Shown one piece after another: positions 32,831 to 58,140 of a stretch of DNA of 64,000 nt. The stretch lies in sequence record MZ311864.1; one strand, 5' to 3'. Both the position numbers and the translations under genes were made by a program. Positions within the stretch are counted from its first letter, which is position 1. Each line of letters begins with the position of its first letter. Under the pieces are notes generated by a model, which saw only the letters and a program-made list of their open reading frames with translations, was not told the origin of the DNA and did no database searches. This DNA is from Escherichia phage vB_EcoM_LNA4.

Positions 32831-33037
32831 TTAGCGATTTTTCTTCAGCTTTTCAATGATGCTCGAAACACCAGCCACCCCAAAAACACCAAGGATGAAG
32901 AGCACGATCACACCAACAATAAAGGCAATACCGAAATAGAGCGGTAGAAGAACAAGCCACCAAGACCAGGTGATCACACCACACAGTTTTAGTGTGATGA
33001 ATACCAGCGCTAATAGCGCCATAAAACCAATTTTCAT
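32831..33037 (-). CDS. small membrane protein (two hydrophobic helices)
   Basis: 68 aa, strongly hydrophobic. Confidence 0.45.
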   Translation of the reverse strand: MKIGFMALLALVFITLKLCGVITWSWWLVLLPLYFGIAFIVGVIVLFILGVFGVAGVSSIIEKLKKNR

Positions 33038-33052
33038 TTTATCTCCCGTAGG

Positions 33053-33274
33053 TTATGAGTGCATCCACGATGGTATGGCTGAAGAGCCACCCATGAATAC
33101 AGTGCCTGAAGCAGCAAATGTGTCCAGTGTGCTATCGAGGCCGTTATCAAAATCAACAGCCTGTGGCTTATGCGTCGTCGCTGGAAGCCCACAACATGAG
33201 CATTCAAGTGTTGATACATAGCCCTCAACCACAGCGTCTGTCTTATGTCCGTGAGGACACCAGAACGATGTCAT
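33053..33274 (-). CDS. small Cys-rich protein
   Basis: ATG at 33274 chosen to avoid overlap; CxxH and CSCCG motifs. Confidence 0.3.
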   Translation of the reverse strand: MTSFWCPHGHKTDAVVEGYVSTLECSCCGLPATTHKPQAVDFDNGLDSTLDTFAASGTVFMGGSSAIPSWMHS

Positions 33275-33279
33275 CTGTT

Positions 33280-33786
33280 TCAATCGCAACTCCCACTGAA
33301 AGAAGAGCTTGAATCGCAAGACGAATACGAGTCGTGACTACTTGATGAATGACTCGGTGTATGATGGGAATACGTGTCGCTGATCGTTGTTGTGTTGATG
33401 AACACAGCATCATCATTTCGACGACGATAACTATCATCATCAGAAACAACACGACTCCGTGGTGGTGCCGGAGGAGCAGGTGGTCGGCTCTTAGACGCAG
33501 TTACTGCCCTCTTCAACTCTTCTGCCTTCAATGGCTTTGCATTGGGTCCAGGAGATGTCTTCGCAGGTGATCGTTCCACAGCAATAGCTTTGGTAACGAT
33601 CTTCTGTTCTGCAACAGTATTCACGGCTTTTGTTGCAATCTCCGAGATCTCTTCCTTTGTCAGGGGAGGGATCTTTGTGACCGTTGTGGTTGTTTGCGAA
33701 ACAAACGTTGTGTTGCCGTTACCGACAGTTACAACCGTGTTGTCGGAAGAAAACAGACTCGCCAACCATTTGAAAAATTTACGCAT
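33280..33786 (-). CDS. hypothetical protein with Ser/Pro-rich low-complexity tail
   Basis: 168 aa ORF. Confidence 0.4.
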   Translation of the reverse strand: MRKFFKWLASLFSSDNTVVTVGNGNTTFVSQTTTTVTKIPPLTKEEISEIATKAVNTVAEQKIVTKAIAVERSPAKTSPGPNAKPLKAEELKRAVTASKSRPPAPPAPPRSRVVSDDDSYRRRNDDAVFINTTTISDTYSHHTPSHSSSSHDSYSSCDSSSSFSGSCD

Positions 33787-34057
33787 AAAATTCCTCCAGT
33801 ACCTTCCAGATTGTGTTCAGTTCCCCGCCAGACATCAGGCTCCAGATCACCATGTCCTGATAACCCTTTCGGCAAACATCCGTCTGACGGAATGCTTTGT
33901 GGAAGCTCGTTGGATTATCCCAATCAACCGGGAGATCGTCAACGTTCTTTTTGAAATAAGAGAGAACGAGTTTCTCTTCCATGTTTGGATTTTCACCCAA
34001 ACTCGCTTCGTACATCTCTACAAACTTCTGCCCGGTACGTTCTGACTTCATAACCAT
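33779..34057 (-). CDS. hypothetical protein
   Basis: 92 aa ORF. Confidence 0.45.
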   Translation of the reverse strand: MVMKSERTGQKFVEMYEASLGENPNMEEKLVLSYFKKNVDDLPVDWDNPTSFHKAFRQTDVCRKGYQDMVIWSLMSGGELNTIWKVLEEFYA

Positions 34058-34419
34058 TCGCCAGTCTCCATTTGTTTTGGTGTCAGGGTTTTAACCTGGT
34101 TGTCGTCAACTGGTGCGAACCCAACCACAGGTTTGAAGCAACGCTCTTTCTGTGCATCGAACACATAGAACGCCTCTACCGCCGCTGGCTTGGTACACGT
34201 TGTCCAGTGACGCTTATACATCCCGTACCCGTCAAGGTATGTTGAAAGGTAGTTAAATAGCGTACCGCCACCACCAACCATAAGTGCAATAGCGATCACA
34301 TAGGTCTTCCATGAAGATCTGAAAGAAATAACCAGCGCCCAGATCAACATCATTACATACATCATAACCGCTGGAACCCAGTTATTGTGCATGGTAAGCC
34401 ATTCCCAAAATCCAATCAT
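34048..34419 (-). CDS. membrane protein
   Basis: 123 aa with 2-3 hydrophobic segments. Confidence 0.45.
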   Translation of the reverse strand: MIGFWEWLTMHNNWVPAVMMYVMMLIWALVISFRSSWKTYVIAIALMVGGGGTLFNYLSTYLDGYGMYKRHWTTCTKPAAVEAFYVFDAQKERCFKPVVGFAPVDDNQVKTLTPKQMETGEWL

Positions 34420-34422
34420 TCC

Positions 34423-34992
34423 TTACCCTCCAAAAGATGAGCGACTGCTCACAGAGCTACCAAAACCACCACGAGAAGATGTGGTGCTACGAGAAACCGT
34501 TGTACGAGGAGACTGCACTGTCGGCTTTGCAGCAGAGCTTGTCACCTTGAACGTTTGACCAGGACGTGCATTGTAGCTACGGAACTTATTGTCCATATAC
34601 TGCCCTGAACGATCCTGATACAGCGGTGCTGAATGATAACCGGAGTTCATGCTGTTACCCATCATGTACCCCATCATCAACGGCATCCATGAAGAACCGC
34701 TGTCTGAACTGCTTGGGTTGTGTCGGCACTGATCACCGAACTCAGCGTAGCAGTCAGAGTAAGTAGCATAGCGTGGCGCTGTTTCATTTGCAACCTTTTC
34801 TGCTTCCTGTCTTGCTGCACGACACTGATCTGGTTTGTGCGTATCTGCAATACACTCATCAACATTTTTGTACATCTTCATGTCGATGTCTGCTTGCTCA
34901 CAACCTGCAACTGTGATTGCTACCGCAAAAGGCAGGGCATAGCGCCCCACCTTCCGGAAAGCATTCTTATTGATATGCTTTGTTCTTTTCAC
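34423..34992 (-). CDS. lipoprotein, YgiB/DUF1190-like
   Basis: Signal peptide with lipobox TVAGC; motifs APRYATYSDCYAEFGDQC, SWMPLMMGYMMG, RGGFGSSV. Confidence 0.45.
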   Translation of the reverse strand: MKRTKHINKNAFRKVGRYALPFAVAITVAGCEQADIDMKMYKNVDECIADTHKPDQCRAARQEAEKVANETAPRYATYSDCYAEFGDQCRHNPSSSDSGSSWMPLMMGYMMGNSMNSGYHSAPLYQDRSGQYMDNKFRSYNARPGQTFKVTSSAAKPTVQSPRTTVSRSTTSSRGGFGSSVSSRSSFGG

Positions 34993-35182
34993 TTATCCAC
35001 CTTTACCTAAACTAACGAGGGCATCACTGCAACCAGTGCGCCTGCGACCATCCCGATAAACATTCCGCCACCAACTAACCAACCAAAATCCCCTGTTCCA
35101 AACTTGAGGCCACCGCAAAATGCTGTAAGCACAGAACAGACAGTGATTAAAAGAAATACACTTATGAATACCAGTACCTGTT

Positions 35183-35890
35183 TCATTTTGATTCCTCTTT
35201 ACGCCACTTGTAAGCACCATACACAGAGTTTAGCAGGAAAGTGACCCACATTGCAAGGTTTGCTGCTCCAGCACCTTCGTGGTGTAACGTCAGGTTAACC
35301 CACATACCTACCGCAACGATATTCACAATGATCCACACATACCACTGTTCAGCATAACGAGTCATCATTAAGTATGTTGCCAGTACAGACAGGATAGCTG
35401 TCGCTGCATCTGGACCTGGAAGTGAGCCTTTCAGCAGGGAGATCCCTTCGGCATACAAACCAATCACAATCAGTGTACTAATACCCACCAACCAACGTTG
35501 TTTTGTGGTCAGATAGTTCTTGATGACATCTGCACGTTCACCGTCAGCAGAAACGTTCAGCTTACGCGCCCAGATAATACCACCAATGACCTGCATAGGG
35601 GTGAATAGGACGGTGTACATGATCGTTTCGCCATACAGTTTATATGTGAATGACACATACGCATACAGCACTGTCGCGATGAAGCCCCAATAGTAGCTGG
35701 AAAGTTTACCTTTCGCAACCAAAATTGCACCGACGATACCTGTCACGGAAGAGATAAACTCCACCATAGTACCACCAGTGACGATAGAAACTGTCGCGAT
35801 GGATGCGGAACAGATCAGAAGCCAGAGGTATTCGAGTTTTGTCCAACCATAGAAGTCTGTCCAGGTTGTTTTTACGTATAGATTCATCAT
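35183..35890 (-). CDS. pnuC: nicotinamide riboside transporter PnuC-like
   Basis: 235 aa polytopic membrane protein; C-terminal LMMTRYAEQWYVWIIVNIVAVGMWV matches PnuC signature region. Confidence 0.75.
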   Translation of the reverse strand: MMNLYVKTTWTDFYGWTKLEYLWLLICSASIATVSIVTGGTMVEFISSVTGIVGAILVAKGKLSSYYWGFIATVLYAYVSFTYKLYGETIMYTVLFTPMQVIGGIIWARKLNVSADGERADVIKNYLTTKQRWLVGISTLIVIGLYAEGISLLKGSLPGPDAATAILSVLATYLMMTRYAEQWYVWIIVNIVAVGMWVNLTLHHEGAGAANLAMWVTFLLNSVYGAYKWRKEESK

Positions 35891-35914
35891 GTAATCTTTT
35901 CTCCTGTGCCTAAT

Positions 35915-36142
35915 TTATAAGGTTACTTGCTCTAACGTTAAAGAGGTTAACCCATATTTTTCTGGTTGTCCAGCAAATTCTTCTTCTGTGTAAGAAAAAG
36001 ACCAGGAACTCCCACGAGCGTCAAACATATCGAACCGTGCAGTGTTCATGTCCGGTGCTTCGATGCAGACGTAGAAGTTGCCGAGAGACATTCCATCCTT
36101 CGTCTGTTGGTTCATCCCGAAGGTGAAGTAGTATTTGTTCAT
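35915..36142 (-). CDS. hypothetical protein
   Basis: 75 aa ORF. Confidence 0.4.
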   Translation of the reverse strand: MNKYYFTFGMNQQTKDGMSLGNFYVCIEAPDMNTARFDMFDARGSSWSFSYTEEEFAGQPEKYGLTSLTLEQVTL

Positions 36143-36387
36143 AGAATGCTCTCCAGCCTTTTCAGAAGCACTTCGATCTTTGGATTCGCTGCACCGTTAC
36201 CGTACAACTTATACTTAAGATCCAGTACAGCGTCAAGCAATTCTGGTGCTGCTGCGATCAGTTTTGCATTTGCACGGGCCTCTTCGTAATCCGTCCCGTA
36301 ACACTTAGCAACCTTCACATCATGCAGAATACCAGTCCCGACTTCTGTGCCGTCATTAGTCCAAGGACCAGGGGAATATTTAACCAT
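36139..36387 (-). CDS. Ead/Ea22-like small protein
   Basis: Motifs SPGPW and ANAKLIAAAPELLDAV. Confidence 0.4.
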   Translation of the reverse strand: MVKYSPGPWTNDGTEVGTGILHDVKVAKCYGTDYEEARANAKLIAAAPELLDAVLDLKYKLYGNGAANPKIEVLLKRLESIL

Positions 36388-36718
36388 TTTGGCTCCTTTG
36401 TTTAGCCCATTCAATTGCCGCAAGTATCACATCGCAATGACATGCTACTTCTTTGTTCGGCTGTTTACAAAAGCATACAAGGTCTTTACCGTCCAAGTCA
36501 AGCAGATCTTGAATAGTTATTTTGCCTGCGCGGATCTGTTGCCATAACCAGACACGATATCTTTCAATTGTGGCCCCACGAGGCTCATCCTTCGACAACT
36601 TATATGGGTTAGCGAATTTAGACTGCTTCAGACCAAGGTGGGGCATTGCTCGCCCCATGTACTCAGCATTCTCAGGTATCACTTTACCGATGTGGTAGAA
36701 GTTGAGCACCTTAGCCAT
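36380..36718 (-). CDS. DUF4326-like protein
   Basis: 112 aa; pattern FYHIGKV...YMGR...NPY...ERYRVWL...GKDLVCFC...CHCDV. Confidence 0.45.
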   Translation of the reverse strand: MAKVLNFYHIGKVIPENAEYMGRAMPHLGLKQSKFANPYKLSKDEPRGATIERYRVWLWQQIRAGKITIQDLLDLDGKDLVCFCKQPNKEVACHCDVILAAIEWAKQRSQNG

Positions 36719-37143
36719 TAGAAATCCATCCTACTATGAAGCTCCGCTGACATCTCCTTCACCCACTGGGTGATTGGAATATCCTCGTAAACATCGTCGA
36801 GCAAAGAGTCCGTCAGCAACCAAATGATCGCATTGCGAAGATGCTCATCCGACATGCGGGTGATCCGGACAACATTACCTTCCTGTGTTTTCCAGACGAG
36901 AATCTGCTCTTTCTTTTCAGGCCTTGGAAGCATATCATACCCAGCAGGAGCAATCATAATACCATTACAACCGCACAGGCAACGTGTGATCATCTTTTCC
37001 CGTTCTAGGAACATCAGGGCATTATCAACCACGTCAGTGCTTAGGTTCAACGCCTCTTCGATCACGTAGTGAAAGGTCCATGCCTCAGTTCTCTCCAAAT
37101 CCTCACTCAGGAACTGTAGGATTGCCAGATTAGTTTGATCCAT
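36718..37143 (-). CDS. hypothetical protein
   Basis: 141 aa ORF, start overlaps upstream stop. Confidence 0.45.
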   Translation of the reverse strand: MDQTNLAILQFLSEDLERTEAWTFHYVIEEALNLSTDVVDNALMFLEREKMITRCLCGCNGIMIAPAGYDMLPRPEKKEQILVWKTQEGNVVRITRMSDEHLRNAIIWLLTDSLLDDVYEDIPITQWVKEMSAELHSRMDF

Positions 37144-37495
37144 CTTTATCCCCTTTCAGGTACGAGATAATCCAGTCTGCCGCCTCTTCGTACTTCTCAT
37201 AACCAAAGTATTTACGACGAGAAAAATATGTGTCGTCATCAGGAACATTGGTCTGATAGTTGAAGTTCCCTGGTTGTCCCCAGTACACATTGATCTGGTC
37301 ACTGTTACGGCATTCAGAGAAAGAAACTTGCTTCGAAAGATCATTCTCACAACTGTGATTCCATTTGGTGATGGAGAACCCTTGTTCACGACAGTTTGCG
37401 TATGCCTGAAGTCCTTCTGATAACTCTGGGGCCTTTTCCAGAATAACCTTCAAGATTCCAAAAGCCTGCTTCATGCTTGAATTACTTACGTTCAT
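37130..37495 (-). CDS. hypothetical protein
   Basis: 121 aa ORF. Confidence 0.45.
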   Translation of the reverse strand: MNVSNSSMKQAFGILKVILEKAPELSEGLQAYANCREQGFSITKWNHSCENDLSKQVSFSECRNSDQINVYWGQPGNFNYQTNVPDDDTYFSRRKYFGYEKYEEAADWIISYLKGDKDGSN

Positions 37496-37496
37496 C

Positions 37497-38570
37497 TTAT
37501 TCTCCTTTGATATTCAGCAAGTTACGGACAGCTTCTTCGGCCTTTTGAATACGATCTTCGTAATCACTGCCGGAGATAACCACCACCTTGCTTGTATCGT
37601 AAGATGCTCTGATCATTGTGTCAAGCAAAGAATGTGTTTCTTTACGCTTTTCTGGAGTATCCTGCAAGCGAAGAGGATCAGCAACCCACGGAACCTCTGG
37701 GGTGAGGAACAAGAACAAGTCATAGAAATTGTAGCCCTCTTCACGGCTCAGTGTCCGGAACAGCAGATCTGAGTAATCGATCTTGTCTGCACAAACACCA
37801 GAGAAGTGTGTGATCAGATTTGTGGTGTCGGAGAACATTACCCCACGGTCACCCCAACCTGCCACCTCCATCTCCTTCAGGCGGTGCTCCATTGCAATAC
37901 GCAGGTAATCCTCACGGGTCATTGCAAACTCGCTTGAATGATACTCACGCTCACAGATCAGCCTTCCGATCTCAGGAATCCAGGCAGCACCGAACGTGTG
38001 TGCCAAGTGTTCGGTCATGGTCGTTTTTCCTGTGCTCTCTACACCAATGATAGCCACCTTCTTAATGAAGCGCTTACGTGCAGGCCACGACAAGTGGTAG
38101 AAATTCTTGTACGGGTCATTACGGATCATTGTGGCTGAGACAGGAACAGCTTTACGTTCTGCGTCGATAACAACATGCTTCGCTTCAGGGAAGAACTCAC
38201 TGAAGTAAGACTCGTACTCCGGCTCAGAAGAGAAAGCAAAGTCGTACTTAACGAAAGGTTGTTTTTCACGGATCAGTTTTGCATAAGCAGCACCGCCTTC
38301 AGGGTATCCGGGGATATTCGACTCATCAACGTAGTCAACCTTCACGTTATCCAGACCCTCATCGGCAATAACATCCAGCAGGTCACGATAGCGGTCAGCA
38401 AGGCCCAACTTTGGACGAATCCACTCTGGTTGAGCGTCAACAAATTTCTGGTCATACGACAGGAACAGATACAGGCAACTTACCTGCGAGGCCGCCTGGC
38501 GAATGAACTCAATATGCCCGTTGGTCAGCGGTGCAAATTTTCCGAAGATAAGGCCGCGAGTCATAGTCAT
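37497..38570 (-). CDS. nadR: NadR-like bifunctional NMN adenylyltransferase / ribosylnicotinamide kinase
   Basis: ATG at 38570 with AGAAGG RBS; nucleotidyltransferase motif GKFAPLTNGHIEFI; P-loop IGVESTGKTT in C-terminal half. Confidence 0.75.
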   Translation of the reverse strand: MTMTRGLIFGKFAPLTNGHIEFIRQAASQVSCLYLFLSYDQKFVDAQPEWIRPKLGLADRYRDLLDVIADEGLDNVKVDYVDESNIPGYPEGGAAYAKLIREKQPFVKYDFAFSSEPEYESYFSEFFPEAKHVVIDAERKAVPVSATMIRNDPYKNFYHLSWPARKRFIKKVAIIGVESTGKTTMTEHLAHTFGAAWIPEIGRLICEREYHSSEFAMTREDYLRIAMEHRLKEMEVAGWGDRGVMFSDTTNLITHFSGVCADKIDYSDLLFRTLSREEGYNFYDLFLFLTPEVPWVADPLRLQDTPEKRKETHSLLDTMIRASYDTSKVVVISGSDYEDRIQKAEEAVRNLLNIKGE

Positions 38571-38571
38571 A

Positions 38572-38892
38572 TTATTGATCCTTCTGGCATTTGTAGACTT
38601 GTGACACACGGGTCACAGACTTTTTGGTTGGGTTGATAGATGACCCCTGATACCAGCGAGACTCTTCGCTCAGAACATTCCCCACCTGAGCATCCTTTTT
38701 AGGGATCACTGTGTCGATGCAGGTCTCACCCATACTATCCTTCATATGGGACCAAATGCTCAGAGAAAAACGCTCGATCTTGTTGCACACCTCGACCTTG
38801 CACATAGGTTCGGTCTGGAAATCATCATCTTCTTCCGCATGGGCGGCTCCAACAAAAGCCATAGCCAGCAGAGCAATCGTTAATTTTTTCAT
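38572..38892 (-). CDS. secreted small protein
   Basis: Signal peptide MKKLTIALLAMAFVGAAHA; several Cys. Confidence 0.5.
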   Translation of the reverse strand: MKKLTIALLAMAFVGAAHAEEDDDFQTEPMCKVEVCNKIERFSLSIWSHMKDSMGETCIDTVIPKKDAQVGNVLSEESRWYQGSSINPTKKSVTRVSQVYKCQKDQ

Positions 38893-38925
38893 TTGAATCT
38901 CCTCTTGAGATTATTTGTTCAGGAT

Positions 38926-39132
38926 TTAGTAACGAGACCACTTCACGCGACCACCGTCGCAGATCAGTTTGTTCTCAACGACAACACCATCAGCACTGTT
39001 TGCGAGGCGTTGTTCACCGTTAGGCTTACAATTATGGGTGACGGTATCTGCGATGTCAACAACAATAAACACCGCAACAACAATTATTCCGACAACCACC
39101 AAGGGTTTAATCCAAGGCATGTGACCACGCAT
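38926..39132 (-). CDS. small membrane protein
   Basis: ATG at 39132 with GGAGA RBS; one hydrophobic helix. Confidence 0.4.
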   Translation of the reverse strand: MRGHMPWIKPLVVVGIIVVAVFIVVDIADTVTHNCKPNGEQRLANSADGVVVENKLICDGGRVKWSRY

Positions 39133-39142
39133 TTTATTCTCC

Positions 39143-39337
39143 TTACCAGTTTGAGGCATCAACAATCATTGCACCGAAAATCAGCACAAAGACTTCAAAC
39201 ATGAACATACACAATCCGCCGCCCAGAATGTCGTTAGTTTGTTGCTGGTAGTCTGCTGTATAAGCAAGACCAAGCGTGGTGAGCATTGTCAGTGCCATAA
39301 GGCACAGGACGGCACAAATAAAGTGCGAAAGTTTCAT
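39143..39337 (-). CDS. small membrane protein
   Basis: ATG at 39337 with GGAGG RBS; two hydrophobic helices. Confidence 0.4.
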   Translation of the reverse strand: MKLSHFICAVLCLMALTMLTTLGLAYTADYQQQTNDILGGGLCMFMFEVFVLIFGAMIVDASNW

Positions 39338-39403
39338 AGGTCCTCCGTTATTAACTCCCATAACAATAAAGCCCCTCAACCGTGAAGTCAAGGGGCTTTA
39401 AAA

Positions 39404-39802
39404 TTATTTTTTCAATCCAACAATCCAAGTTAACACGTTGTCTGGTAATTTGGTGATGGTTTTGTACATCTTCACTTCGTCCTTAGTGAGGACACGGATA
39501 TTCTCATCAACACCCACATTATTGTGGTAATCGAAATCAGCATCTCTCTCAATTAAGGTTAGATAATTCCCCTCGCCGGACTCTGGAACATTTCGATGAT
39601 GTTTAGACCAGTAGCGTTCAGCGATAAATAGATCCCCTTTTCGATCCCCCGCTAACTTGACGATAAACTTATTCATAAGCTTATCACGAAGAATTATAGA
39701 CAGGGCATGGGGGTCCAAACTATCAGCCACCCGGAGGACCTCAGCATCGCCCAGCTCCACATCCACGGTTTGCACCGTGGTTTGTGTGCCTTTTACCTTC
39801 AT
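39404..39802 (-). CDS. hypothetical protein
   Basis: 132 aa ORF. Confidence 0.45.
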   Translation of the reverse strand: MKVKGTQTTVQTVDVELGDAEVLRVADSLDPHALSIILRDKLMNKFIVKLAGDRKGDLFIAERYWSKHHRNVPESGEGNYLTLIERDADFDYHNNVGVDENIRVLTKDEVKMYKTITKLPDNVLTWIVGLKK

Positions 39803-39999
39803 GCCTTATCTCCAAGCAGACCTGGGGGGACAGGAAGGTCCTGCCAGTGTGTGACTGTGAGATTATTTCTGAAATCCCCATCATCCCAGCGTCCATCTTC
39901 TGAGCGGAAGGCGATCCACAGGTTCTCACCATCAGTGACCAGAACGTATTTACCCACTGAAGGCAACCAAACTTTGCATGAAACCCAATCAGTAAACAT
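39799..39999 (-). CDS. hypothetical small protein
   Basis: 66 aa, start overlaps upstream stop. Confidence 0.35.
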   Translation of the reverse strand: MFTDWVSCKVWLPSVGKYVLVTDGENLWIAFRSEDGRWDDGDFRNNLTVTHWQDLPVPPGLLGDKA

Positions 40000-40001
40000 A
40001 A

Positions 40002-40475
40002 TTAAATCCTCGCTTTGTTATTTACAATAGTGGAGATAACCGACTGATTAACTCCGTATAACCTTGCTAACGCTCTCGTTCCACGATCCCTTGAATACGG
40101 AACATATGCATCTCTGATCTCAGCCACTTGTAAATCTGTAAGCTTATGATGAGGATGCTCCTCATTCTTAACAGGCTTCAAAAGTCCGGTCTCTGAGGCA
40201 TGTTCCATATTCTCTTTTACGGTTGACCATTCGAGATTATCAACATGGTTGTTCTCTTTGTTACCGTCCTTGTGATTAACAAAGGGTTTGTCATCAGGGT
40301 TGGGAATATACTGCATTGCTACCAGTCTGTGAACAAGAAAGTTCCTAATCTTCCCATCTATAGTTGTATGAACCTTCATGTACCCATTTTTAAGACGGGT
40401 TTGTTTTATGACATTGCCCGTCTTTACCCTGGTAACAACCTTTCCGTCAACACTAACAACGAACAGGCTGTTCAT
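40002..40475 (-). CDS. HNH homing endonuclease (HNH_3-type)
   Basis: HRLVAMQYIPNPDDKPFVNHKDGNKENNHVDNLEWSTVKEN; C-terminal HTH-like region; AAGGAG RBS. Confidence 0.75.
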   Translation of the reverse strand: MNSLFVVSVDGKVVTRVKTGNVIKQTRLKNGYMKVHTTIDGKIRNFLVHRLVAMQYIPNPDDKPFVNHKDGNKENNHVDNLEWSTVKENMEHASETGLLKPVKNEEHPHHKLTDLQVAEIRDAYVPYSRDRGTRALARLYGVNQSVISTIVNNKARI

Positions 40476-40501
40476 AAAACTCCTTATAAATCAATAACCT
40501 G

Positions 40502-43216
40502 TTAATGGCACTCGGCCCAGTTGCGGCCTGTTAAGTAAGCCCCAGTAATCATGACCGGAGAACCCATCATCTTAGCGGCTTTCTCGACACATTTCACAAC
40601 CATCTCACCAACAGGGCAATACTGGATCTTGATCTTGCCGTCTTCACCAAAGATACCTTCGTAAACGGTGTTGCCTTCAGCATCTTTGACCTTTTCCCCA
40701 TTCTCATCCTTGACAGCTTTTCTCCACTCGTGACCGTCGAATACACGGCCCTTTGCTTCCCACTCTGTGACAAAGGCGGTAGCCTCTTCAAGAGTATCGA
40801 ACTTCCATTTCTTCAGGTACTTTTTAGGGACCTGAAGCTGGTATTCATCGTGGTAGTAAATCAGGCGACGAACATCGTCATCATACCATCCACGCTTGAT
40901 CAGTTCCCAGTGCAGCAGGATACCAACCAAGTCGAACAGAGAAGCACCACCATTCTGCTGGTAAGCATTCAGAAGTGAGTGCTTGGAGCGGGTCCAGATT
41001 TTACGACCATCTAAACCAGGAATGTAACGTTTTCCGGTTGCTTCCCAGAAGTTTTCAAGCCACTCTTTACGACCTTTCAACCCAAAGTTACTATCCCAGA
41101 AAGCATCAATTACCGCCTGTGCTTTGTCAAGCGAGATGTTCAGCATTGCTGCAATCTTCGCTGCCTGAGCACCGTACATGATACCGTATGTTACACCCTT
41201 ACCACCGTTACGAGTAACGAGAGTTCCGGACGCTTTGGTGTACGCCTCGGCGTTTCGTGCGTGAGCATCTCCACTTTCCATGATGCGGAGATATTCACCG
41301 CCGTCAAATTGATATGCACCCCATGCGGCGATCATACCTTCCAGGTTGGAACCGTCAATACCTACCTGATAGTATTCATCGGTGACACCCCAAAGCCCTC
41401 GCATCTCTTTACCCAGCAACACCTTAGGATCAGGTTTAGGCATGTTTGCACAAATGGTGTGCTTACAGCGGCCTGTGTTCGTGATCCCAGAGAACCTTGC
41501 TGGAAGTTTACCATCAATCGCCAGGCGAGGGTGGTTCAACAATCCAGTGTCGTTCTTATCCTCGTCGATAGGGTCGAGAACAGAGCGACGGTTACGCAGT
41601 GACAGCCACTTAACAATCTGTTTAGCCAAGTGAACATCAATGCGTTCAAGGTTCGGACATAGCTTACCAAAGTTATCCTTCAACTGTGGTGAGGTAGGCA
41701 ACTGTCGTGCCTTACGTCTGAACTTCTTGAATACCTCAGCATAACCCTTATCAGAGGCATGACGCAAGTCAAATTTTCGCTCAGAGATATTAAATTTTTC
41801 ATCAGAGTTATTCAAGTGCTCAAGGATCAAAGACTTGTACTCAGATTCAGCAAGCTCTTCGATGTATTTACGAACTAGTTCATCCTGTTCCTCATCAGAA
41901 CGGGCTTTTTTGAACTGGTCCTTGGACACATCCTTCACACGCCACAGCGTAGGCTTCCAGCCTGCGTCCCTGATCAGGTATTTCTTGATGTCGTCCTGGT
42001 TAGAGATCTTCATCGGAACCATCAGGTCAGGCATCTTCCCGTTTCGCAAATCCTCTTTAGCCTTCTCCATCAGGTCAGGAGGCAACGGAACAAGGGTGTT
42101 TTCCTTGTTAAGTTGAGACCGGATGAAGTCTGCAAAGTGCATAGGGTCTTCAACACCATTTGCAATGCAGTAGCGCTCTCCCGCTGCACTCACTTCTCCG
42201 TTGGTCTTAAAGGCGGTCTTAGGTGGTCCTTTGAACTCCAAAGCTTCACGATTTACCGGATAACCCAACTTGAATTCTAGCCAGTTCCAGCCGTGGTGTG
42301 AGATGTTTCCTGCACCATCAAACGGGTTAGCTGGGAACTTTGGCTGTTGAGATTTTGTCATCTCTTTCATAGGAAGTAAAGGTTCAACCTCCTCTTCGAT
42401 CTCGTGCATCATAACATCAATGCGATCACGAAGTTTCTCAGCCTCATGCTTGTTGAACGGAACACCCTGAATCTCTTGCTCAATCATCAGGTAATCCGTC
42501 AGCATACGGCGACGAAGAGCGTTTTTCCAGTTAATCTGACGCATACCTTCGGGTTTATCCGTATACATAAACTGCTTATCATCAGGCCAACGAGCACCAG
42601 TGGATTCATCAATCAATGCTTTCCACGTCAGTTCGTTGATCAGAACGTCTTCCCACACACGGTTAACGTACTCCCAGAGTGGTTGGTTACGCCAGTCATC
42701 AATCTGAACTTTCTTGTTCGCTACACGATAACCCCATGCAAGTAAGCCATGCGGCCCCACACGGTCACGCTTCCCTGTCACAGGGTTCAGTACAGAATCA
42801 GGACAACCATTTGGTAACGGGCGGTCTGGGTACAGAACACGACTCATTGACAACGTATCGTACAGGTTGACCTGGGTGTCCCCGATAGTCCCCAGGCACT
42901 TAGGGTCTTTGAACATATCGTATTCAATGCCGGACAGCTTCTTCCAGAGGCGCAGGTCGTAACCAAAGAGGTTATGACACGCAATCCCACGGCAAGTTTT
43001 AAGGAACGCCTCAAGCTCGTCATAAGAGCGGATCGTGAGATTGGCTTCCGTCTTGCTTCGTGCGTATGTTACCGCACTTTCGTACTCTGGGTGTGCAGGA
43101 TCTAAAAACAGATTCCAGTTGTTAACACCATACTCCTTTAACAGGGTGCAGTGGTACTTCGTTACCTCTTCTAACAGGCCATCGGCCTCGTTATCGAGTA
43201 TAAATAAACCTTTTAT
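40502..43216 (-). CDS. DNA polymerase, family A, T7 gp5-like with 3'-5' exonuclease domain (non-canonical start)
   Basis: Motif A DGSNLE, motif B RNGGKGVTYGIMYG, motif C YHDEYQ; frame open upstream of first ATG (42916) and encodes ILDNEADGLLEEVTKYHC Exo I region after an AGGAGG RBS. Confidence 0.8.
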   Translation of the reverse strand: MKGLFILDNEADGLLEEVTKYHCTLLKEYGVNNWNLFLDPAHPEYESAVTYARSKTEANLTIRSYDELEAFLKTCRGIACHNLFGYDLRLWKKLSGIEYDMFKDPKCLGTIGDTQVNLYDTLSMSRVLYPDRPLPNGCPDSVLNPVTGKRDRVGPHGLLAWGYRVANKKVQIDDWRNQPLWEYVNRVWEDVLINELTWKALIDESTGARWPDDKQFMYTDKPEGMRQINWKNALRRRMLTDYLMIEQEIQGVPFNKHEAEKLRDRIDVMMHEIEEEVEPLLPMKEMTKSQQPKFPANPFDGAGNISHHGWNWLEFKLGYPVNREALEFKGPPKTAFKTNGEVSAAGERYCIANGVEDPMHFADFIRSQLNKENTLVPLPPDLMEKAKEDLRNGKMPDLMVPMKISNQDDIKKYLIRDAGWKPTLWRVKDVSKDQFKKARSDEEQDELVRKYIEELAESEYKSLILEHLNNSDEKFNISERKFDLRHASDKGYAEVFKKFRRKARQLPTSPQLKDNFGKLCPNLERIDVHLAKQIVKWLSLRNRRSVLDPIDEDKNDTGLLNHPRLAIDGKLPARFSGITNTGRCKHTICANMPKPDPKVLLGKEMRGLWGVTDEYYQVGIDGSNLEGMIAAWGAYQFDGGEYLRIMESGDAHARNAEAYTKASGTLVTRNGGKGVTYGIMYGAQAAKIAAMLNISLDKAQAVIDAFWDSNFGLKGRKEWLENFWEATGKRYIPGLDGRKIWTRSKHSLLNAYQQNGGASLFDLVGILLHWELIKRGWYDDDVRRLIYYHDEYQLQVPKKYLKKWKFDTLEEATAFVTEWEAKGRVFDGHEWRKAVKDENGEKVKDAEGNTVYEGIFGEDGKIKIQYCPVGEMVVKCVEKAAKMMGSPVMITGAYLTGRNWAECH

Positions 43217-56967: not shown

Positions 56968-57149
56968 TTCCAGTTCCCATTGAAAAGCCGCAGCACCAAG
57001 AGGTTCATGAAGTACAGGGGCCAAAGCAGGCCCATGAACACACCACCAAGAAGATCCATAGTGTCTAATCTCCAGAATTGCTGCGCTCTTTTCATGAAGA
57101 TATAAAACCCTACAAATGCGAACAGAAGATAGGTAATCCCAACCATCAC
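56964..57149 (-). CDS. small membrane protein
   Basis: 61 aa, two hydrophobic helices. Confidence 0.35.
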   Translation of the reverse strand: MMVGITYLLFAFVGFYIFMKRAQQFWRLDTMDLLGGVFMGLLWPLYFMNLLVLRLFNGNWK

Positions 57150-57637
57150 TTTTTCTCCGGAAGGATATAAACTGTTACATCACAATCCCAGAAAACAGAT
57201 TTGATCATCGCTTCAATGACGTTCCAGTCACCACCTGCAAGACCAGCACCGATTTTCGGGAAGCCGATTTTGTAGTCAGCCATAGAGCCGTCTGTAAAGC
57301 TCTGTAAGGCCTTCTTCATCTGATCCAACGAATCATACAGGGCATTGTAATCGAGGTCACGTAGGCCCTGTTTACGGCGATTATAACCATATTGCGAATA
57401 CAGATTAAATCCTGCGAGAGATCCGTCCTTCATGAAGGCCACAGTGAAGGTCCCAAGTTTGGCTTTATCACCTTTCTCGGTCTTCAGATCCGCAGCGTAC
57501 ATTTTAGGGAACGCTTCTTTGATCAGTGGAGCTATACCGCTACCCATTGTGCAATAACAATTGCAGCCATGCGCAAAAACATTAACCTCACCAGATTTCA
57601 CAGCCTCAATTAGGTCGCCTACTTTATACTTAAGCAT
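57146..57637 (-). CDS. macrodomain protein, TARG1/DarG-like ADP-ribosyl hydrolase family
   Basis: NVFAHGCNCYCTMGSGIAPLIKEAFP and KIGFPKIGAGLAGGDWNVIEAMIKSVF resemble TARG1-type macrodomain core motifs; GGAGGA RBS. Confidence 0.6.
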   Translation of the reverse strand: MLKYKVGDLIEAVKSGEVNVFAHGCNCYCTMGSGIAPLIKEAFPKMYAADLKTEKGDKAKLGTFTVAFMKDGSLAGFNLYSQYGYNRRKQGLRDLDYNALYDSLDQMKKALQSFTDGSMADYKIGFPKIGAGLAGGDWNVIEAMIKSVFWDCDVTVYILPEKK

Positions 57638-58140
57638 CAGTCCTCCACTATAATATCATGAATCGTTTTTACGTATGCTTGATAACATTCACTCGCTTCC
57701 TCAGCGGAGTCGAATGTTCCAAGGTGGATCTTACTATACACAGCATGGTATCTTAACCTAGTCCACCTTTTGTCTACGAATACACCACGGAATCCTGTTT
57801 GGTTCTTCTTTCCTCTGCTGTAATTGTAGACGTTTACAAACTTCTGGACATCCCTGAGGTTAGTAATACGATTGTTATCTTTTTGTCTGTCCTTGTGGTC
57901 AATAAAATAAGTGGGCCACACGCCGTAATAAAAAGCCCAGGCCACTCTGTGTGCCAAGAAGTAAAAACCTTTACCTTCAATCTTAACACCAAGCCTTACG
58001 TAACCGTCTTTTCTTTTTGTGCCTGCAACCTTTCCAAAATGACGACGAGCGAGAGGATTGATACACGTAAACAAACCTGTCTCAGGGTCATATGAGAAGG
58101 AAGATTTAAGCGCCTGTAATGCCTCTTCACTCTCCTTCAT
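57637..58140 (-). CDS. HNH endonuclease with AP2 domain
   Basis: LAHRVAWAFYYGVWPTYFIDHKDRQKDNNRITNL plus AP2-like GFRGVFVDKRWTRLRYHAVYSKIHLGTFDSAEEA. Confidence 0.75.
   Translation of the reverse strand: MKESEEALQALKSSFSYDPETGLFTCINPLARRHFGKVAGTKRKDGYVRLGVKIEGKGFYFLAHRVAWAFYYGVWPTYFIDHKDRQKDNNRITNLRDVQKFVNVYNYSRGKKNQTGFRGVFVDKRWTRLRYHAVYSKIHLGTFDSAEEASECYQAYVKTIHDIIVED

Follow-up and report, generated by a model that had tools for sequence, protein, structure and literature searches.

A NadR-like and PnuC gene pair in Escherichia phage vB_EcoM_LNA4: a known phage module with a likely role in nicotinamide riboside salvage

In bacteria NadR phosphorylates nicotinamide riboside (NR) to nicotinamide mononucleotide (NMN) and adenylylates NMN to NAD (PMC7221760), and the transporters of the Pnu family work by facilitated diffusion combined with metabolic trapping (PMC5749112). 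Iyer et al. (2022, PMC9503650) included NadR in their list of NAD+ synthesis genes with which phages counter NADase effectors. Osterman et al. (2024; bioRxiv 10.1101/2024.02.11.579819), who showed BASEL phages with a NadR-PnuC operon, found that phage NadR usually stands in an operon with PnuC and suggested, as a hypothesis only, that it may be ‘yet another pathway’. In the present study a pair of this kind, a pnuC gene at 35183-35890 and a nadR-like gene at 37497-38570, both on the minus strand, was analyzed in a stretch of 64,000 nucleotides (the window) from Escherichia phage vB_EcoM_LNA4 (MZ311864.1), which is a Seunavirus-like virulent myophage of the Vequintavirinae.

With the bacterial proteins (NadR of H. 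influenzae and L. lactis, PnuC of N. mucosa) the window pair has the domain architecture and the catalytic as well as the transporter motifs in common, and presumably also the facilitated diffusion with metabolic trapping. However, its NadR-like protein is only 25-30% identical to the bacterial enzymes, reads TNGH instead of HTGH in the first motif and is without the helix-turn-helix (HTH) repressor domain carried by NadR of E. coli and Salmonella. In the operon of T5-like phages (Epseptimavirus, including BASEL phages) the same two-domain HTH-less enzyme (35% identity) is encoded upstream of a transporter with 37% identity. There only 1 nt separates the neighboring genes, whereas five small open reading frames (ORFs) lie between them in the window, and the T5-like enzyme retains a Trp after the motif YPxG, where the window enzyme has Gly. 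Pairs in the same place and order as in the window are present in the Seunavirus/Vequintavirinae, as genes 26 and 32 of PVP-SE1 (Salmonella) and as GAP31_248 and GAP31_243 of GAP31 (Cronobacter). The window PnuC is identical by 99.1% to that of GAP31 and by 97.9% to that of EC152, and the NadR-like protein by 98.0% to that of FENT2, 97.5% to that of EC152 and 88.8% to that of GAP31; the differences from the Seunavirus pairs are a mosaic detail only, as in GAP31 with its closely matching PnuC but more distant NadR.

Two further phage systems, NARP1 (Adps and Namat) and NARP2 (Nampt and Nmnat), would share with the window pair the presumed outcome, namely that NAD+ is restored in the infected cell. 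Like NARP2, NadR-PnuC would be independent of ADP-ribose (ADPR), and the manner of NAD+ cleavage would not matter. Both differ from the pair in their enzymes and in their precursor, since NadR-PnuC would use external NR via a transporter, and both are validated in counter-defence. The pair itself belongs neither to the NARP1 type, with its phosphoribosyl pyrophosphate (PRPP)-synthetase-like Adps and NAMPT-like Namat, nor to the NARP2 type, and no genes of either type were found among 28 window ORFs scanned against Pfam. As an auxiliary module of phages NadR-PnuC is already known, with annotations in hundreds of them, and we consider it likely that it serves NR salvage and keeps up the NAD+ pool from an outside precursor, also under NAD+-destroying immunity.

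The transporter and the enzyme

The gene at 35183-35890 (minus strand) encodes a predicted polytopic membrane protein of 235 aa, which was recognized as a PnuC-type, putative nicotinamide riboside facilitator by profiles and by alignment to the solved PnuC of Neisseria mucosa (4QTN). The Pfam profile NMN_transporter (PF04973) matched it with E=3.2e-37 and 128.6 bits (cut-off 27.3), and the PnuC equivalog TIGR01528 was passed with 108.6 bits (cut-off 42.45); the enterobacterial subfamily model NF011926 stayed below its cut-off (47 vs 335). Among the PHROG families it falls into phrog_1880 (‘PnuC-like nicotinamide mononucleotide transport’, E=1.6e-75). The alignment with 4QTN (E=4e-39) is ungapped and shows 35.6% identity over 219 aa, at residues 13-231. 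The ligand motif WxxW(x)3D/N of transmembrane helix 6 (TM6) reads WYVWIIVN (residues 183-190), and the two Trp proposed as gates, where TM3 and TM7 end, are kept and align with the corresponding Trp of 4QTN (...IIWARK, ...YKWRK). The hydropathy profile displays at least six strongly hydrophobic segments, the Pnu core consisting of seven TM helices with or without an extra N-terminal helix. A putative substrate-trapping kinase is linked to the transporter in the form of the NadR-like gene, 1.6 kb upstream on the same strand.

This second gene, at 37497-38570 (minus strand), encodes a NadR-like, presumably bifunctional enzyme of 357 aa with a predicted NMN adenylyltransferase domain (about residues 5-150) and a predicted ribosylnicotinamide kinase P-loop domain (about 170-340). 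Both domains scored above the Pfam gathering scores (CTP_transf_like, E=5.6e-5, residues 8-150; AAA_28, E=9.4e-22, residues 171-340). The NadR models TIGR01526 (E=1e-53, model positions 1-324 of 325) and PRK08099 (E=9.6e-49) were matched as well, and the protein was placed in phrog_3462 with E=1.9e-139. The match to PRK08099 begins at model position 65, and the protein starts 4-5 residues before the GKF motif; the HTH repressor domain is therefore absent, which makes the window protein an enzyme only, unlike the trifunctional enterobacterial NadR. The ATG at 38570 is the start annotated in EC152 and GAP31, and an alternative GTG at 38609 would give a longer ORF overlapping the upstream gene.

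The motifs of the enzyme were examined in an alignment of the window protein with ten phage and three characterized bacterial NadRs (E. coli-type, L. lactis, H. influenzae), the positions of the kinase motifs being taken from PMC7221760. All catalytic elements proved invariant in it. The first nucleotidyltransferase motif reads GKFAPLTNGH (G10, F12, G18, H19), with G18 and H19 invariant in the alignment, and the ISxTxxR-type motif is present as VSATMIR, with R139, S145, T147 and R150 retained. In the kinase domain Walker A (GVESTGKT; G176, S179, G181, K182), Walker B (D248) and the lid (D298, R301) all correspond to invariant columns. The best match in the PDB was 9x6f/9x6h (E=5.3e-60), followed by the E. 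coli-type, L. lactis and H. influenzae NadR structures (E=1e-30 to 3e-26), and the four solved proteins align end to end with the window protein. The sequence of 9x6f/9x6h and that of the NadR-like protein from T5-like Salmonella phages are the same (100% identity), which means that a phage member of NadR has already been solved.

The profile scores of both proteins are far beyond chance. The original prediction had named the two minus-strand genes a PnuC-like transporter and a NadR-like two-domain enzyme, and both identities were borne out, the former by the Pfam and equivalog cut-offs passed and by the WxxW(x)3N motif, the latter by the two Pfam domains, the full-length matches to TIGR01526 and PRK08099 and the intact catalytic motifs. 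All three motifs it had quoted were recovered in the translations of the two ORFs, and its spacing of about 1.6 kb is correct, with 1606 bp from the PnuC start at 35890 to the NadR stop at 37497.

Occurrence of the pair among phages

A tblastn survey of 50,697 phage records yielded PnuC homologues in 778 (about 1.5%) and NadR-like homologues in 724 of them. For most host genera the counts of PnuC and NadR agreed (Salmonella 176/176, Klebsiella 47/48, Escherichia 36/37, Bacillus 24/24, Lactobacillus 18/18, Erwinia 14/14). The assumption of the original prediction that a phage-borne PnuC is unusual can hence not be upheld, given this number of records, a PHROG family of its own and an annotation in this phage group that goes back to PVP-SE1. 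In at least six phage lineages the two genes were located adjacent or near to each other. In ICP1, in the Erwinia jumbo phage pEa_SNUABM_44, in the T5-like Salmonella phage S116 (with a gap of 1 nt) and in Vibrio phage D115 (where they overlap by 4 nt) they are direct neighbors. Bacillus phage Izhevsk has them two genes apart, and five to seven small ORFs separate them throughout Seunavirus and Mydovirus.

At the DNA level the region 35000-38900 shares 89% identity with Enterobacter phage EC152 and 88% with Cronobacter phage GAP31. In these two phages both genes already carry annotations, as nicotinamide-nucleotide adenylyltransferase and nicotinamide mononucleotide transport(er), and so they do in PVP-SE1, in Escherichia phage 4MG, in Enterobacter phage FENT2 and in many relatives from Klebsiella and Salmonella. 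KNP2 and KpS8 were considered as relatives without pnuC, as it seemed from their DNA; KNP2, however, does encode a PnuC with 82% protein identity.

Neighboring genes and other NAD+ functions of the lineage

In GAP31 and EC152 a ribose-phosphate-pyrophosphokinase-like (PRPP-synthetase-like) and a NAMPT-like gene form one operon (GAP31 locus L021, 29935-33037; EC152 locus L022, 4522-7612), and the copies of GAP31 and 4MG are given as Adps and Adps-associated Namat, i.e., NARP1, in the supplementary tables of Osterman et al. By synteny with these relatives the NARP1 operon would lie outside the window, about 15-18 kb to the left of its position 1, and it is very likely, as judged from the relatives, that the lineage of the window carries NARP1 too. 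NadR-PnuC is therefore probably a second NAD+ route beside NARP1 in this lineage. GAP31 also encodes a NADAR protein and a DNA ligase annotated as ATP-dependent; an NAD+-dependent phage DNA ligase was considered as a reason for the pair and discarded, as none was found in the window and the GAP31 enzyme carries this annotation. A Macro-domain ORF is located at 57146-57637 (minus strand; Pfam E=1e-5), with BT1257-type macro proteins and OARD1, then yeast Poa1p (E about 1e-5), as its best solved relatives. Poa1p is an ADP-ribose-1''-phosphate phosphatase and, among characterized proteins, the closest homologue of Adpp, a phosphatase of phages by which NARP1 is extended against aRES; the window Macro ORF does not adjoin NARP1. 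With NARP1, NADAR, Macro, DUF4326 and NadR-PnuC the lineage invests heavily in NAD+/ADP-ribose functions.

Between nadR-like and pnuC lie five small co-directional ORFs (35915-36142, 36139-36423, 36380-36718, 36718-37143 and 37130-37495, all minus strand), which are spaced by -44 to +24 nt and, besides the DUF4326 protein at 36380-36718, belong to PHROG families of unknown function. Their set differs among relatives, with five to seven ORFs in EC152, GAP31, KNP2 and SSE121, and GAP31 is without a homologue of the ORF at 37130-37495; in T5-like phages, ICP1, Vibrio D115 and the Erwinia jumbo phage no ORF intervenes. The DUF4326 protein (36380-36718, minus strand) comprises 112 aa (Pfam DUF4326, E=2.9e-18), and its gene is kept between nadR and pnuC in Seunavirus and Mydovirus with 65-100% identity. 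Between the window and the Mydovirus KNP2 this protein shows 100% identity, against 93% for NadR, a sign of mosaic exchange within the block. No relative of the DUF4326 protein was found in the PDB by sequence, and its RefSeq label ‘NrdA-like’ is probably a misnomer. For DUF4326, Iyer et al. (2022, PMC9503650) predicted a phosphatase activity on the terminal ribose phosphates of ADPR or of products of its breakdown, and the window protein is possibly a lineage-specific accessory gene related to NAD/ADP-ribose. As a general partner of the pair DUF4326 was rejected, because none was found in the retrieved loci of ICP1, T5-like phages, Vibrio D115, the Erwinia jumbo phage and Bacillus phage Izhevsk; its link with the pair is thus lineage-specific only.

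On the other side of the pair a small secreted protein of 106 aa is encoded at 38572-38892 (minus strand), with a signal peptide and four conserved Cys (phrog_6894). The gene ends 1 nt before the nadR-like start, and the two are probably co-transcribed. It flanks the pair in three lineages, including T5-like and Erwinia jumbo phages, and with 58-71% identity its conservation across lineages is higher than that of NadR or PnuC. However, it is missing from KNP2 and SSE121 and occurs away from any NadR or PnuC in four other phages and three metagenomic contexts. Its predicted fold had no match among solved structures. We treat it as an unexplained neighbor, not as a component of the system, and a functional link is uncertain.

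The ten minus-strand ORFs from 39132 to 35007 are spaced by -44 to +33 nt, and a consensus scan of the minus strand from 39169 to 34486 gave no terminator-like site; packing and terminator scan would fit a single transcription unit, with the genes probably co-transcribed. A hairpin with a 15-bp stem and a promoter-like TTGACT-17-TATTGT were detected by the consensus scan at 39363-39400 (minus strand), with the 3' half of the hairpin overlapping the promoter-like match. This candidate for a combined terminator and promoter, which would be the boundary or head of the unit running from nadR-like to pnuC, sits in the gap after the ORF 39404-39802. An NAD+ riboswitch or another known RNA near the genes was rejected, as an Rfam scan of 33000-40500 returned only sub-threshold chance matches to U12 and mir-592.

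Two further observations concern the DNA polymerase gene and mobile elements. The polymerase (43216-40505, minus strand) aligns over its full length with that of EC152 (904 aa, 95% identity), and its first codon (43214-43216, minus strand) is ATA where EC152 has ATG, with the AGGAGG ahead of it intact; only after 100 codons, at 42916, does an in-frame ATG/GTG/TTG follow. An error in sequencing, a non-canonical start or a truncated product could each account for the ATA. What looks like a truncation of the ORF comes from the differing start codon, not from a split of the gene. Two HNH_3 endonuclease ORFs are present at 40002-40475 and 57637-58140 (both minus strand). The former lies between a DUF551-like gene and the polymerase gene, on the 3' side of the latter, where GAP31 and EC152 have no such ORF; it has likely been inserted as a mobile homing endonuclease.

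Proposed function and alternative explanations

From homology, motifs, gene pairing and synteny we infer the substrates, the co-transcription, the timing and an anti-defence benefit of the pair as follows. External NR would diffuse across the inner membrane through PnuC and be trapped as NMN by the kinase domain of the NadR-like enzyme at the expense of ATP, after which the adenylyltransferase domain would join NMN with a second ATP to yield NAD+. The route would be free of the NadR-based regulation of the host. The genes, in their tightly packed and probably co-transcribed minus-strand block beside the replication genes, would act alongside NARP1, which rebuilds NAD+ from breakdown products. 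The chemistry proposed by the original prediction, i.e., import of NR and conversion via NMN to NAD+, is supported by the profile scores, the catalytic motifs and the pairing conserved in many phage lineages. A counter-defence role is plausible but not new; our literature search retrieved no paper testing phage NadR-PnuC as counter-defence, no ‘NARP3’ and no paper on 9x6f.

Several points weigh against this explanation. The NadR-like protein remained under the curated equivalog cut-offs of NCBI (TIGR01526, 182.7 bits vs 341.15; PRK08099, 166.6 vs 201) and is, by its sequence, a divergent homologue rather than an NCBI ‘equivalog’. The Trp following YPxG in all three characterized bacterial NadRs is replaced by Gly at residue 99. 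In the lineage of the window the pair is split by five unrelated small ORFs, and the evidence for the promoter is at the consensus level only, with promoter-like matches not enriched over shuffled sequence (16 vs 13.9). Immune NADases release ADPR or ADPR-1''P and nicotinamide, not NR; the route can therefore not recycle the debris and depends on external NR. In the same field names taken from Pfam misled in the case of NARP1 (Osterman et al., bioRxiv 10.1101/2024.02.11.579819), and in the searched literature no phage NadR-PnuC pair was found for which activity, expression or infection had been measured.

The same chemistry might also be ordinary metabolic support, which would top up NAD+ for the redox and nucleotide metabolism of a 150-kb lytic infection and bypass the control by host NadR, any benefit against NADases being incidental. 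We hold this to be possible, though unlikely: it would fit the position of the genes beside DNA polymerase and primase/helicase, not in an obvious anti-defence island, the possession of NARP1 for counter-defence, the inability of NadR-PnuC to use NAD+ cleavage products and the wide spread of NAD+ synthesis genes in medium and jumbo phages (PMC9503650, PMC11662467), but with the ATP-dependent ligase annotation in GAP31 there is no obvious phage consumer of NAD+, and Macro, NADAR and DUF4326 in the same genomes point to a conflict over NAD+. Moreover, NARP2 likewise makes excess NAD+ and is proven counter-defence. It is rather improbable that the NadR-like enzyme mainly recycles internal NMN, e.g., from host LigA during replication, with PnuC being secondary or serving another pyridine or vitamin. 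The kinase domain, which is needed for NR only, retains Walker A, Walker B and the lid Arg, which speaks against such recycling, as does the pairing with PnuC in at least six lineages. Although the nadR-like gene lies by the replication module, is not adjacent to pnuC in the lineage of the window, and the Pnu family includes thiamine and riboflavin transporters, the window PnuC passes the NR-specific equivalog cut-off and has the Asn in WxxW(x)3D/N found in PnuC, not the Asp reported for PnuT.

Could the annotation itself mislead, so that the enzyme adenylylates or phosphorylates another ribosyl compound (for instance a derivative of ADPR or an immune signal) and the transporter moves this compound or its precursor? 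The scores of the NadR-like protein under the curated cut-offs, its 25-30% identity to characterized NadRs together with the change from Trp to Gly, the precedent of the wrong Pfam-based NARP1 predictions and the predicted ribose-phosphate phosphatase DUF4326 inside the block would all agree with this. We nevertheless regard it as highly improbable, as the full-length two-domain alignment retains every invariant motif and the depositors of 9x6f name the T5-like homologue nicotinamide-nucleotide adenylyltransferase. The Trp position varies among otherwise similar phage homologues, with Trp in S116 and SSE121 and Ser, Ala or Val in some others, and in the other sampled lineages the module has no DUF4326. 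A wider arrangement was considered as well, in which the Seunavirus/Mydovirus pair would be the core of a larger NAD+/ADP-ribose block, with the predicted phosphatase DUF4326, perhaps the secreted four-cysteine protein as an aid to periplasmic NR acquisition, and NARP1 plus the Poa1p-like Macro protein as a layered answer to differing NAD+ cleavage. If true, this would be more than a simple two-gene salvage route; we think it distinctly improbable.

NR salvage that sustains the NAD+ pool is thus the explanation we prefer. Depletion of NAD+ is a common end-point of antiviral systems (Thoeris, SIR2-HerA, DSR, aRES), and with two NAD+-rebuilding phage pathways proven, NadR-PnuC is the obvious third candidate. 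It would be the sole pathway drawing on an external vitamin (B3, as NR), and consequently its benefit would vary with the environment. Since the same genes are annotated in hundreds of isolated phages, including the BASEL T5-like phages, the window itself adds no special handle; a lineage with a likely NARP1 and NadR-PnuC, however, lends itself naturally to the question of why one phage maintains two routes to NAD+.

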